From an uncultured Verrucomicrobiae bacterium (GTDB lineage Bacteria; Verrucomicrobiota; Verrucomicrobiia; Chthoniobacterales; UBA10450): a DNA stretch of 64,000 nt. Within the stretch, counting starts at the first letter, position 1; every line of letters starts with the position of its first letter. Where the stretch lies: the NCBI GenBank assembly GCA_963757675.1, contig CAVWTH010000011.1, forward strand, positions 69,682 through 133,681. Reading direction: 5' to 3'. Shown one piece after another: positions 1-63,320 of the stretch. The notes beneath the pieces were generated by a model. It ran no database searches. It saw nothing but the letters and a program-made list of their open reading frames with translations, and was not told where the DNA came from. The translations under genes and the position numbers were made by a program.

Positions 1-1122
1 CTGAAAACCAAGCGTGCGGCCGTACCGAACGGCGCGACGTAAGATGCGACGCAGAACATAACCGCGGCCTTCGTTAGATGGGATGATTCCATCGGCAATT
101 GCGAACGATAGCGCGCGGATGTGGTCAGCTATCACGCGGAACGCAATGTCGATCTTTTCCTGCTCGTTCCGATTTTGTAGGGCGGCTGTGTCAGCCGCCG
201 TCGGCGTCTCATAGAGACGCCCTACAGTCGGAACCGTGCTCGCGTATTTTTTGCTGCTCAGTTTTTCCAGCTCGTCGAAAATCGGGCGAAAAATGTCAGT
301 CTCGTAGTTTGACGTGGTTCCCGAGAAATGGGTGAGATTCTTTGTGCCCTGGATGATTGCGGTCACGCGCTCGAAACCCATTCCAGTATCGACATGACGC
401 TGTGGGAGCGGCACAAATTCCATGCGGCCGGGGTCTCCGCCCCCGGCTACAGGTTGCGCGTTGAACTGGATGAAGACGAGATTCCAAATCTCGATGCAGC
501 GCGGGTCGCCCTCGTTCACGAGCGCGCCGCGCGTGTCGCCATCTGGTGTGAGATCGACATGCACTTCCGAGCACGGTCCGCACGGGCCGGTATCGCCCAT
601 CATCCAGAAATTGTCGGCCTTGCCGCTGCTCAGAACGTGGACGTTTGGATCGAGATCGGCTTCGCGGAACAAATGCGCCCAGTGATCGTAGGCTTCCTGG
701 TCGAACTCGCTCGGTTCGCCGGGTCCGGGCTTGTAAACGGTCGCATAAAGCCGTTGCGGCGGAAATTTCCAGCGTTCGACGAGTAATTCCCAGGCCCATT
801 CTATTGCTTCCTTTTTGAAATAATCGCCGAAGCTCCAGTTGCCGAGCATCTCAAAAAAGGTGTGGTGATACGTATCGAGTCCGACGTCTTCGAGGTCGTT
901 ATGTTTCCCGCCGGCGCGAATACATTTTTGCGTATCGACGACGCGCGGCGGATTCCAGGATGGCTTCTGTTGCCCGAGAAAAATCGGCACGAACTGGTTC
1001 ATGCCGGCATTCGTGAAAAGCAGGTTCGGCGCGTCAGGCAAAAGCAACGACGAAGGCACAATCGTGTGCTGTTTCTGGCGAAAGAAATCGAGAAATGATT
1101 GCCGGATTTTAGCCGAGGTCAT
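1..1122 (-). CDS. alaS: alanine--tRNA ligase, N-terminal ~374 codons (gene continues past window start)
   Basis: Not in the ORF track because it has no stop in the window. Reverse complement from ATG 1122-1120 reads [69 protein letters not shown], open to position 1. These are class II AlaRS catalytic-core motifs. Confidence 0.93.
176..226. repeat. TGTAG-type REP doublet (REPIN-like), 51 nt, in frame inside alaS
   Basis: TGTAG-GGCGGCTG-TGT-CAGCCGCC-GT-C-GGCGTCTC-ATA-GAGACGCC-CTACA. Two perfect 8-bp hairpins sit between inverted TGTAG/CTACA. Translated on the minus strand as [18 protein letters not shown]. Confidence 0.8.
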
Positions 1123-9610: not shown

Positions 9611-9684
9611 TGTAGCCGAGGGCGCTGACCTCGGCTCACTCAAAGGAACGCATACTGAGCGGGCCAGCGACGCCCGCGGCTACA
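9611..9684. repeat. TGTAGCCG-type REP doublet (REPIN-like), 74 nt
   Basis: TGTAGCCGAGG-GCGCTGA-CCTCGGCT, about 25 nt of spacer, then ..CCCGCGGCTACA in inverted orientation. Lies between the convergent birA and 9691 genes. Confidence 0.7.
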
Positions 9685-14679: not shown

Positions 14680-14794
14680 TGTAGGGGAAGCTGCAGCTTC
14701 CCGTTTTCTGGATTTGTTGTAGCCGTCGCCCTGTGGGCGACGATCCGTATCGTAAGCGGACCCCAGGGCCGCGCTTCACAGGGAAGCGGCTACA
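14680..14794. repeat. REP cluster: single TGTAGGGG REP plus a 77-nt TGTAGCCG REP doublet
   Basis: 14680-14702 is TGTAG-GGGAAGCTG/CAGCTTCCC, an 18-nt perfect palindrome. 14718-14794 is TGTAGCC-GTCGCC-CTGTG-GGCGAC, a spacer, then GCCGCGCTTC-ACAGG-GAAGCGGCTACA. Confidence 0.75.
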
Positions 14795-16535: not shown

Positions 16536-16591
16536 GGTAGGGGCGGTTCACCTGAACCGCTCTCGGGCGATTGAGGTCAATCGCCCCTACC
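16536..16591. repeat. compact REP doublet (REPIN-like), 56 nt, intergenic
   Basis: GGTAG-GG-GCGGTTCA-CC-TGAACCGC-TCTC-GGGCGATTGA-GG-TCAATCGCCC-CTACC. Confidence 0.8.
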
Positions 16592-60968: not shown

Positions 60969-63320
60969 ATGAAATTCTCCGTTAATTGGCTGCGCGAATT
61001 TGTCGATCTTCCAAAAAATCCCGAAGAGATCGCCGAATTGCTAACTCGCGCCGGTATTGAAACCAAAAAAATCGAGACGCGCGGCGCGAACATCGACAAG
61101 GTGATCGTTTCGCAAATCACTGCATCGTCCCGCCATCCGAATGCCGATCGGCTCACGGTTTGCGAGGTGGACGACGGCAGCGGCACGAAACGCCAGATCG
61201 TTTGCGGCGCCACGAATTACAAAGTCGGCGACAAGGTTCCGCTCGCGCTTCCGGACGCGAAGCTGCCTAACGGCATGGAGATTCGAAAGAGCAAACTTCG
61301 CGGCGTCGAATCCGAAGGAATGCTTTGCAGCCCAATCGAGCTCAGTCTCGGCGAAGATGCCTCCGGTCTGTTGATCTTATCGCCCGATGCGAAAATCGGG
61401 GCGCCTATTGGCGATCTTTTTCCAGCAGATACGATTCTGGACGTCGAGATTACGCCAAACCGCGGCGATTTGCTGAGCCATTTCGGTCTTGCTCGCGAAA
61501 TTGCCGCTTTGACAAATAAGGAAACTGTAGGGCAAGCGCATCGCTTGCCGGCAGGCGGAGCGCCTGCCCTACAAAAATCGGGCATTACAATTTCCGCAAC
61601 GCGCGAATGCCCATTTTTCTCGCTGCGTAAAATCGACAACGTAAGCGTGGGTCCGAGCCCGCAGTGGTTGCGCGCGAAGCTTGAGAGCGTCGGCGTTCGC
61701 TCCATCAGCAATATCGTCGACATCTCCAATTTCGTGATGCTGGAGCTCGGTCAGCCCACGCACGCGTTCGACGCCGATAAATTGAAGGGCAGCATTAATG
61801 TGCGGCTCGCGCGCGACAGCGAGAAGTTTCTCGCACTGGATGGAAGCACCTACACGCTCAAGCCGGACAATTGTGTTGTCGCCGATCAGGAACGTGCCGT
61901 TGGGATCGGCGGCGTAATGGGTGGCGAAGAAACGGGTGTGACCGATTCGACCAAAAATATTTTGCTCGAAGCCGCTTATTTCTTGCCGGCGAGTATTCGC
62001 CGGACGGCGCGCGATTTGAGTCTGCAAAGTGATGCGAGTTATCGATTCGAGCGGGGCGTGGATCCGGAAATGATTTTGCAAGCGTCGCACCGCGCTACGG
62101 AATTAATGCGCGAAATCGCCGGTGGAGCGCCGGCAAAAGAAATCCATGTCGCCGGTGAACTTCCCGCCAATCCAGCGGACTTCTCGTTGATTTACGAAAA
62201 ATGTGACCGCGTGATCGGCATCTCCATTGATCCAGAGGCTGTTGATGAAATTCTCACCCGGTTCGGGCTGCGGAAAACCACGAGCACGAACAAAGCCGCA
62301 ACCTGGCAGATTCCAAGTTATCGGCGGGATTTGCAGCGCGACGTTGACCTGATCGAAGAAGTCCTTCGCGCGTACGGAATAGACAGGGTTCCTGGAAGAA
62401 CGCGCGGCCGTTTCATCTCCACGAGTGAAGCTGATCGTTCCCACGATTTCGAAACTCTTATTCTGCGCGAACGATTGACTGCATGCGGTGTGTCGGAAGT
62501 GCGGACCTCAAAATTGATTTCGAGGAGCGTTGCGGCTTTGAACGAAGCAATCGAGTTGCGGAATCCGTTAAGCGAAGATCACGTTGCGCTGCGGCCAACA
62601 CTGATCAGCGGTTTGCTCGATGTGCTCGAACGAAATATTCGCGCGGGCGCCGAGAGTGTTTCCATCTTCGAGATTGGCCGAGTATTCATCCCGCCATCTG
62701 CGAAAGAGGAACGACACCTCGGAATTTTGCTTTGGGAAAATGCGATCAGCGCTCCTAATTGGCGATCCCACACAAGACGTACCGTCGACTTGTTTGATCT
62801 CAAGGGCGTGCTCGAATGTGTTGTTCCAAATCTGTCGTTTCGGGCAGAAAGGTCCCCCGATTTCGCGCTCGCGGTCGAAGTTTGGTCTGGCGATGAGCGG
62901 ATCGGATTTGGCGGCCACCTCTCGGCGGGCAAATCGAGCGCCGCGGGTTCAGTGCTTGTTGCCGAACTCCATGCCGATCCTCTTTTGGACAGTGGCGGTT
63001 CAGCAAAAAAATTCCGGGAACTCGATCGCTACCCTTCGATCACTCGCGACATCGCGATGATCGTTCCTAACAAATTGACCCACGCTGAAATTTCACGCGT
63101 GATTCAAGAACCGCCGGAACCGTTGCTCGAAAGCGTGCAATTATTCGACTTGTTTGAAATCAGCGAAGATACGGATCCGACTGCTTCCGGAAAATCACTT
63201 GCATATAGATTGACATACCGCGCTAAAAATCGCACACTCACAAACGAAGAAGTGACTGCAGCGCACGCGAAGATTCGCGAGCGACTAAAGCGCGAACTGA
63301 GCGTGACGCTGCGGGAATAG
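60969..63320 (+). CDS. pheT: phenylalanine--tRNA ligase beta subunit
   Basis: 783 aa. MKFSVNWLREFVDL.., tRNA-binding domain (HPNADRLTVCEVDDG..VCGATN), B3_4 (..RDL.L.SDASYRFERGVD), B5, and the FDX-ACB C-terminus. Intact, but contains the repeat at 61526-61573. Confidence 0.95.
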   Translation: MKFSVNWLREFVDLPKNPEEIAELLTRAGIETKKIETRGANIDKVIVSQITASSRHPNADRLTVCEVDDGSGTKRQIVCGATNYKVGDKVPLALPDAKLPNGMEIRKSKLRGVESEGMLCSPIELSLGEDASGLLILSPDAKIGAPIGDLFPADTILDVEITPNRGDLLSHFGLAREIAALTNKETVGQAHRLPAGGAPALQKSGITISATRECPFFSLRKIDNVSVGPSPQWLRAKLESVGVRSISNIVDISNFVMLELGQPTHAFDADKLKGSINVRLARDSEKFLALDGSTYTLKPDNCVVADQERAVGIGGVMGGEETGVTDSTKNILLEAAYFLPASIRRTARDLSLQSDASYRFERGVDPEMILQASHRATELMREIAGGAPAKEIHVAGELPANPADFSLIYEKCDRVIGISIDPEAVDEILTRFGLRKTTSTNKAATWQIPSYRRDLQRDVDLIEEVLRAYGIDRVPGRTRGRFISTSEADRSHDFETLILRERLTACGVSEVRTSKLISRSVAALNEAIELRNPLSEDHVALRPTLISGLLDVLERNIRAGAESVSIFEIGRVFIPPSAKEERHLGILLWENAISAPNWRSHTRRTVDLFDLKGVLECVVPNLSFRAERSPDFALAVEVWSGDERIGFGGHLSAGKSSAAGSVLVAELHADPLLDSGGSAKKFRELDRYPSITRDIAMIVPNKLTHAEISRVIQEPPEPLLESVQLFDLFEISEDTDPTASGKSLAYRLTYRAKNRTLTNEEVTAAHAKIRERLKRELSVTLRE
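61526..61573. repeat. TGTAG-type REP doublet (REPIN-like), 48 nt, in frame inside pheT
   Basis: TGTAG-GGCAAGCG-CAT-CGCTTGCC-GGCAGGCG-GAG-CGCCTGCC-CTACA. Translated as TVGQAHRLPAGGAPALQ. Confidence 0.8.

Follow-up and report, generated by a model that had tools for sequence, protein, structure and literature searches.

The alaS gene at the left end of the window (the whole stretch of DNA that was analysed, 64 kb long) carries within its coding sequence a 51-nt palindromic element, at positions 176-226, which is a tail-to-tail dimer of GTAG-headed REP units, that is, a REPIN-like unit. We believe that such a dimer was very probably mobilised by RAYT, the REP-associated tyrosine (HUH/Y1) transposase, and survives as a translated extension of an AlaRS loop. 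Elements of this type have already been documented; what is new here is the lineage and the stem families. Two features go beyond the published description: palindromes of different types take one another's place at fixed codon positions, and the stems are strongly conserved.

The features in alaS are the following (loci from relatives are given by their L numbers):

1-1122, minus strand: alaS (PF01411), first 374 codons; the gene continues past the left end of the window
176-226, minus strand: REP doublet in frame in alaS; the same doublet occurs at the same site in L001, L131 and 31 protein alleles
203-226, minus strand: REP unit 1 (in coding sense TGTAG-GGCGTCTC-TAT-GAGACGCC), loop codon Tyr304; the same stem lies beside RAYT genes in L124 and L042
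176-199, plus strand: REP unit 2 (TGTAG-GGCGGCTG-TGT-CAGCCGCC), a compensatory variant of the common GGCGTCTG...CAGACGCC unit
428-451, minus strand: lone REP unit (TGTAG-CCGGGGGC-gga-GACCCCGG) from a second family, read in frame within alaS as residues 224-232 (PVAGGGDPG); present or absent among relatives

The doublet is made up of TGTAG (176-180), the hairpin GGCGGCTG-TGT-CAGCCGCC (181-199), a GTC spacer, the hairpin GGCGTCTC-ATA-GAGACGCC (203-221) and CTACA (222-226). Both stems are perfect 8-bp inverted repeats with 3-nt loops, the GTAG tetranucleotides adjoin both stems at the foot of the hairpins and point outward, and the 25+25 nt of the palindrome as a whole are 80% complementary. The initial annotation had described the position, the sequence and the two stems exactly as we find them, and its reading of an in-frame REP doublet also stands: the minus-strand frame opening at the ATG at 1122 runs uninterrupted through the element, which forms AlaRS residues 299-316. 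These residues align to a gap in human AlaRS structures (PDB 5KNN and others), in agreement with the variable loop in which they had been placed; the loop is presumably surface exposed, and an AlphaFold2 model of the AlaRS fragment, built on a shallow alignment, has a mean pLDDT of 48, too low to bear on exposure. The pattern TGTAGGGC-N20-50-GCCCTACA has two matches in the window (176-226 and 61526-61573) and none in 100 dinucleotide-preserving shuffles. Furthermore, the 86-nt alaS region folds far better than shuffled sequence (z = -6.7 as RNA and -5.75 as DNA), the predicted structure being two hairpins closed by head-head pairing. If translated, the inserts would yield a tryptic peptide of 17 residues and VGQAHRLPAGGAPALQ.

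A search for GTAG next to a GC-rich hairpin returned 11 units in the 64-kb window, compared to about one in shuffled sequence; the density in close alaS loci of relatives was 0.18 units per kb. Outside alaS, the window holds the following features:

9611-9684, no strand: intergenic REP pair of the CCGRGGGC family, between convergent genes; present in L004, absent in L001
14680-14794, no strand: intergenic cluster of three GTAG-headed hairpins, between convergent genes
16536-16591, no strand: intergenic REP doublet with GGTAG heads, between divergent genes
60969-63320, plus strand: pheT, phenylalanyl-tRNA synthetase beta chain; ortholog in L011
61526-61573, plus strand: REP doublet in frame in pheT (TVGQAHRLPAGGAPALQ), sister to the alaS doublet; it occupies the linker that joins the tRNA_bind and B3_4 domains

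The unit at 428-451, the third in alaS, had been overlooked in the initial annotation. With 11 units in the window, this third alaS unit and the intergenic copies among them, the copies in the two tRNA synthetase genes are members of an ordinary population of REP-like hairpins. The heads of the alaS and pheT elements are conserved and their stems differ yet remain self-complementary, so that the two had rightly been taken for the same kind of element, and their co-occurrence in two such genes is no coincidence, since a single repeat family accounts for both. The sequence of the stems is not free to take any form and falls into a few recurrent families.

These families emerged from a doublet scan of one genome per GTDB species with the strict pattern TGTAGGGC-N13-GCC-N0-15-GGC-N13-GCCCTACA, which matched at least 119 stretches. 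About five-sixths of the matches listed came from Udaeobacter, Chthoniobacterales, Spartobacteria or Verrucomicrobiae MAGs, often several per genome, and the remaining ones from Acidobacteriota, Thermoanaerobaculia, Chloroflexi and a few others. Perfect 8-bp stems were present in 188 of the 256 units analysed. At the five stem pairs left free by the search pattern, Watson-Crick pairs filled 90% of cells, compared to 39% after shuffling, and each of these pairs showed three or four pair types. The recurrent units were GGCGTCTG-TGT-CAGACGCC, GGCGTTTC-TGT-GAAACGCC, GGCAGGCG-nnn-CGCCTGCC, GGCAACCG-nnn-CGGTTGCC and GGCAAGCG-nnn-CGCTTGCC. Variants of the first of these groups make up the alaS doublet: its GGCGTCTC...GAGACGCC unit is also found elsewhere, and its GGCGGCTG...CAGCCGCC unit, one compensatory pair apart from the common form, was seen only in alaS copies in the sample analysed. 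The pheT doublet is a GGCAAGCG+GGCAGGCG heterodimer that recurs in pheT (window and L011), in queA (L024 and L113) and in L116. Doublets measure 48-63 bp, with spacers of 3 nt in alaS and 0 nt in pheT. The closest AlaRS sequences (81-94% identity) come from Verrucomicrobia, Chthoniobacterales and Ca. Udaeobacter MAGs, and the doublet's REP family appears to be abundant in Chthoniobacterales and Ca. Udaeobacter (Verrucomicrobiota).

The flanks were less informative than they had seemed. The AC on one side and AAATCGG on the other, noted for both copies in coding sense, are indeed there, with an extra A in the pheT copy (CTACA-AAAATCGG). A shared target motif was not borne out, as only three flanking bases were biased across 256 element heads: A-A-T precedes TGTAG (T in 76% at -1, then A in 56% and A in 45%), sequence farther out is random, and the head consensus thereby extends to A-A-T-TGTAGGGC. 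In place of AAATCGG, the orthologous alaS copies of L001 and L131 have AAATCAA and AAAACCA, respectively, and the TCGG of pheT is host coding sequence (K-S-G; baseline allele AGATCAGGC). The TVG...ALQ reading common to the two copies is real, though weak as evidence, since the TAG of the head closes one of the three frames and two copies would agree half the time. No target-site duplication was seen at the copies in the window or at the filled and empty intergenic pair of window and L001 (9611-9684), where the empty allele has unrelated bases, and no clean pair of empty and filled alleles was found.

The comparison of eighty alaS loci from metagenomes and 120 protein homologs allowed us to follow the doublet site among relatives. 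The short AlaRS loop is the ancestral state, because verrucomicrobial enzymes of 63-73% identity almost always have it (LPKxGSxGxTEQEKID) and its length is similar in the human enzyme. Among close relatives the empty allele is common (e.g. L002), and L001 and L131, like 31 protein clusters, share the window's doublet at this site. The same codon position holds a GGCAAGCG-based doublet with a 13-nt spacer in L003 and L125-L128, three to five other GC hairpins in L004 and L005, a CTCAAC-type simple repeat in L130 and L135, and yet other REP types in the more distant lineages L153, L175 and L203. Some alleles, those of type B, have mismatched, decaying stems, so decay of the stems also occurs. 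Most sequences lack an insert (ANPDGTFT) at the second alaS site (residues 224-232), which is filled in about one-quarter of close homologs; its empty allele (AACCCGGAC) resembles the REP arm GACCCCGG, and filled and empty states of the two sites occur in all combinations. On a weakly resolved NJ tree from the rest of AlaRS (about 300 conserved residues), the insert types took 30 parsimony steps, compared to a minimum of 6 and about 38 after shuffling; we set aside the use of this tree to tell recombination from recurrent insertion, given its poor resolution. In several related long-read contigs alaS is split into two ORFs. We did not take this split as genuine, since recA and permease genes are split too, which looks like long-read indel error.

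The pheT site shows a turnover that parallels that of alaS. Among 120 close homologs, the commonest allele is a Lys-rich linker lacking a palindrome (TGKKLKSTPRESKIAIKKTG), and other alleles are the window's doublet, a GGCAACCG+GGCAGGCG doublet, a GGCGTTTC+GGCGTCTG doublet, a non-GTAG pair of palindromes and a 43-residue segment. Several palindrome alleles retain the linker length of 28 residues, which indicates that palindromes in pheT replace host residues and do not only add to them; indeed, replacement beyond plain addition is observed at both tRNA synthetase sites. The elements are not specific to such genes: Pfam typing of 20 host ORFs with in-frame doublets placed them in at least 10 unrelated gene families, mostly between Pfam domains. 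The hosts are PheT, QueA, LigD, IspG, glycogen debranching enzyme (GDE), a GH57 branching enzyme, an RlmI-like methyltransferase, a UvrA-like protein, a Mur ligase, an M28 peptidase and a Kelch protein. For QueA and the RlmI-like methyltransferase, the doublet lies at the identical site in two genomes each.

A candidate source of mobility is present in relatives. A tblastn search in which E. coli RayT served purely as a probe found ORFs at five loci. Three full-length ones reach NCBIfam NF047646, 'REP-associated tyrosine transposase', with 90.9 (L124), 100.2 (L070) and 93.4 (L050) bits at a cutoff of 80, and the candidates match Pfam Y1_Tnp and carry the HUH motif (PDHLHIL) and the Tyr motif (WEYLRQNPVRAG). 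The L124 protein has 310 homologs, many labelled RayT by JGI. The genes of L124 (Chthoniobacterales) and L042 (Spartobacteria) share a locus between rpsA and an M20 peptidase gene and have GGCGTCTG / GGCGTCTC (or GGCGTTTC) doublets on either side, whose stems belong to the same family as those of the alaS element. The genes of L070, L050 and L060 are bordered by other GTAG families. Neither a RAYT gene nor an empty rpsA-M20 locus was found within the 64-kb window. To our knowledge, full reconstitution of RAYT-driven REP transposition has never been achieved.

The doublet is conserved in an unusual manner. Across the three DNA alleles compared (window, L001 and L131), it is 96-98% identical, compared to 82-90% for the rest of alaS, and all differences are confined to the loop of one hairpin. 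Other 51-nt segments as conserved as the doublet numbered 3-6 of 994 in the two more divergent pairs and 41 of 994 between window and L001. Third codon positions are identical at 18/18 in the element versus 60-76% elsewhere (P = 1e-4 to 6e-3). In the 31 protein alleles the residues encoded by the stems are invariant, and the loop codon reads C, G, Y, F, R or S. The single REP at the 224-232 site follows the same pattern, stem fixed and loop variable, and the pheT doublets of window and L011 are identical at 45/48 nt, only the loops differing, in proteins that are 70% identical. The doublet is conserved much more than expected of a neutral passenger, and the conservation of the stems beyond the surrounding coding DNA, together with the variation of the loops, points to a constraint on the nucleic acid and not on the peptide. 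Selection, self-correction of the palindrome or exchange with other copies could each be the cause.

We propose that REP units are mobilised by RAYT as single-stranded hairpins and that one copy landed, or was copied, into the AlaRS loop joining the aminoacylation domain to the tRNA-recognition domain. It would persist as a translated extension of 17-21 residues in an essential enzyme because the GTAG/CTAC heads close just one of the three frames and additional residues are tolerated in the loop; the peptide is presumably made and harmless. Only copies that lie in a linker or loop between domains, keep the frame open and have a net length divisible by three would survive, and the same filter may have left the sister copies in pheT and many other genes. 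That RAYT itself moved the alaS doublet is suggested by the stems beside the RAYT genes of relatives.

It might be argued that intragenic doublets are kept by selection as nucleic-acid structures, for instance as ribosome-pausing mRNA hairpins at domain boundaries or as DNA or protein binding sites, or that they stay intact through RAYT- or homology-dependent exchange of cassettes at fixed sites. We consider maintenance of this kind distinctly unlikely, even though the invariant stems amid variable loops and flanks in alaS and pheT, the several doublet types carried by each of these loops among close relatives, the scatter of insert types on the AlaRS tree and the position of most inserts between domains would all fit. 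It would likewise fit that homogenisation by the bulk of the family is an improbable cause in alaS, since the GGCGGCTG...CAGCCGCC unit was seen in no other copies of the sample. However, close relatives free of an insert are common at both sites, which argues that the structure is dispensable, and the type B alleles have let their stems decay; no terminator-like feature and no known RNA family (Rfam) was found at the alaS element. Moreover, the comparison of the alaS doublet rests on three DNA alleles, the AlaRS tree is short and poorly resolved, and self-correction of palindromes by template switching could equally keep the stems paired. A more far-reaching version, unlikely in our view but worth stating, is that in Ca. 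Udaeobacter and related bacteria a few inter-domain loops of essential genes (the two alaS sites, pheT, queA and the rlmI-like gene) are fixed landing pads for REPINs, in which cassettes are exchanged and then come under nucleotide-level constraint.

Template switching might also have made or enlarged the palindromes in place, by quasi-palindrome mutation at hairpin-prone sites and with no transposition. The lack of a target duplication, the replacement rather than displacement of host residues and the resemblance of the empty 224-232 site to a REP arm would agree with this, as would a cluster of three substitutions on the right-hand side (TCAAAGC in L001, TCGGAAC in the window), which adds 7 bp of complementarity to the left flank. 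Yet the same 19-nt units occur at more than 100 unrelated loci and around RAYT genes, and pheT and queA share an identical heterodimer, so local mutation at most reshapes copies after their arrival, and as an account of their origin it is very unlikely. The inverted repeats at the ends (TGTAGGGC / GCCCTACA), with TG at the start and CA at the end, may recall a miniature DDE-type transposon (MITE) or a transposon footprint. This origin is extremely improbable for elements of 48-63 bp, far under the size of a MITE, that show a target-site duplication at no copy, have random flanks beyond 3 nt and are associated with a Y1/HUH RAYT gene instead of a DDE transposase. As for a chance palindrome or an assembly artefact, metagenome assemblies and the frameshift-split genes of several related long-read contigs might raise the suspicion, but the absence of pattern matches in 100 shuffles speaks against chance, and independent assemblies, as well as 31 protein clusters, have the same insert at an identical codon, which makes a chimera implausible and leaves this explanation barely conceivable.

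Intragenic dimers of GTAG-headed REPs have precedents. GTAG-tagged REPs, including head-to-head and tail-to-tail dimers and RAYT 'REPtrons', were described by Di Nocera, De Gregorio and Rocco (2013, BMC Genomics 14:522, PMC3733652), and among the species covered there the verrucomicrobium Opitutus terrae had the largest number of intragenic copies. Over half of the intragenic copies are dimers or grouped repeats coding for 20-30 residues, in hosts such as uvrA and DNA ligase and, in other species, tRNA synthetases; different REPs at one site were reported in one case, in recB (PMC3733652). Our elements share with that system the GTAG head beside a GC-rich stem of 6-9 bp, a division into sub-families whose stems use alternative complementary bases, the tail-to-tail arrangement of dimers around very short spacers, intragenic dimers that code for about 20 residues and RAYT genes flanked by repeats (PMC3733652). 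GTAG-tagged REPs are described as short GC-rich stem-loops of 20-40 bp with covarying stems, as is the alaS element, and as extragenic, whereas the alaS doublet and four other units of the window lie inside alaS or pheT; exceptions within genes are on record for this family (PMC3733652). Our stem sequences are distinct from those of the GTAG-17, GTAG-19 and GTAG-20 families of O. terrae (PMC3733652), and so do the peptides (VAGVADP / GTGVPPV in O. terrae, VGRL.ETP / VGQAHRLP here). Ca. Udaeobacter and the Chthoniobacterales lay outside that survey, in which turnover of multiple palindromes at one codon position and conservation at the nucleotide level are undocumented beyond the one recB example (PMC3733652). 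A literature search on Udaeobacter and palindromic repeats found no paper linking the two.

The alaS element also resembles REPIN-RAYT systems (Bertels and Rainey 2011; Nunvar et al. 2010, PMC2817692), in which two inverted REPs form one unit, the same heterodimer occurs at several loci and a single, vertically inherited RAYT is flanked by cognate REPs, the last in our case only in related MAGs, those of L124 and L042. Unlike REPINs, which are described as almost exclusively extragenic, the alaS copy lies in frame in coding sequence, and its halves, with their partial complementarity, are predicted to form two hairpins with paired heads and not one long hairpin. PARCELs (palindromic amphipathic repeat coding elements, PMC2996958) are likewise palindromic DNA translated within genes, but they are AT-rich tandem elements of greater length that code for amphipathic repeats of surface proteins and have neither a GTAG head nor a RAYT. 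The resemblance to other translated palindromes extends to in-frame insertion in unrelated ORFs, essential ones included, as in the Rickettsia palindromic elements (RPE), the classic case for comparison, whose copies are tolerated in surface loops. These, which PMC3733652 also cites, were reportedly described by Ogata et al. in 2000 as selfish palindromic DNA in frame in many unrelated genes. In comparison to the 48-63 bp GTAG-REP doublets, RPE-1 is 100-150 bp long with a consensus of its own, going by its description in the literature and not by alignment, and its host is an obligate intracellular alphaproteobacterium; we know of no RAYT association for RPE-1.

Our findings indicate that a REP/RAYT repeat system is active in Ca. 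Udaeobacter-like Verrucomicrobia, which are among the most abundant soil bacteria and little studied, and that it writes segments of 16-21 residues into essential enzymes such as AlaRS and PheRS. On a practical matter, such peptides should be annotated as repeat-derived and not as features of the enzyme, contigs break at REP repeats during assembly and binning, repeat families can expose mis-binned contigs, and the insertion sites mark naturally permissive loops for protein engineering. If the reading of fixed landing pads were true, the REPIN-RAYT system would actively maintain structured DNA or RNA in coding sequence and the copies would not be decaying junk. Taken together, the conservation of the stems and the turnover of the palindromes provide a testable case for whether intragenic REPs are neutral passengers or maintained structures.

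REP units (GTAG-headed palindromic hairpins) and associated sequences were located at the following positions, in addition to the in-frame alaS doublet, the tail-to-tail REP pair read as AlaRS residues 299-316:

Window 428-451, minus strand: single REP, TGTAG-CCGGGGGC-gga-GACCCCGG, in frame in alaS and of a family other than the doublet's
Window 166-172 and 228-234: outer flanks of the alaS doublet, GTTCCGA / TCGGAAC, extending its pairing by 7 bp
Window 9611-9684: pair of intergenic REPs where lipB-like and AsnC-like genes converge
Window 14680-14794: three clustered GTAG-headed hairpins, intergenic, between convergent genes
Window 16536-16591: GGTAG-headed doublet in the intergenic space of a divergent gene pair, upstream of the gcvT-like ORF
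Related metagenome locus L124, 888-910 (also L042; database proteins P0241-P0360): in-frame REP-like segment in the gene of a REP-associated tyrosine transposase (RAYT), TGTAG-GCCATCTG-tgt-CAGACGGC

The single REP encodes AlaRS residues 224-232 (PVAGGGDPG). Most relatives are empty at this site and read ANPDGTFT, about a quarter of the close relatives carry the REP, and variation among the filled alleles is confined to its loop. The RAYT segment is read as YCRPSVSDG and lies in the very transposase clade associated with the doublet's REP family; we found it in nearly all of 120 RAYT homologs, with two copies in some.

Between the lipB-like and AsnC-like genes, the REP pair is shared by the window and L004 (about 2840-2930) and is missing from L001 (about 1450-1530), the closest relative, where some 11 unrelated bases take its place. 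We saw no target duplication at this site.

In related long-read (contig_N) assemblies, alaS, recA, the permease gene, pheS and pheT are broken into two to three ORFs (L001 11290-11400; L002-L005, L205-L208), probably through indel error; this splitting would also explain the length of 380-700 residues seen for most AlaRS and PheT proteins in databases. Verrucomicrobia-type REP units also occur on contigs binned as Acidobacteriota or Nitrospirota (L026, L073, L082), including a Mur ligase gene (L026) that has the in-frame doublet of Udaeobacter L014 and L061; this suggests mis-binning, transfer being less likely.

The alaS loop that holds the doublet has other contents elsewhere. In some alleles (L130, L135, L140; P0031 and others) its place is taken by a simple repeat of the CTCAAC type, which reads SQPSTLNSQ in protein, a string also listed among the intragenic repeat peptides of Opitutus terrae (Oter_3011; supplement of PMC3733652). 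Distant verrucomicrobial lineages (L143, L155, L164, L166, L174, L195) have inserts of 40-50 residues sharing the motif LKTSGEGPSNIIEV; these inserts do not look REP-like.

The right flank of the doublet reads TCGGAAC in the window versus TCAAAGC in L001, i.e. three clustered substitutions that lengthen the palindrome and change NQS to NRN in the protein, a pattern that looks like template-switch (quasi-palindrome) mutation. Immediately 5' of the insertion point, conserved G-S-T-L-P codons form the palindrome GGCAGC-AC-GCTGCC in L127, L130, L150 and L203; it is absent from the window allele. Where present, this palindrome may render the alaS insertion point hairpin-prone.
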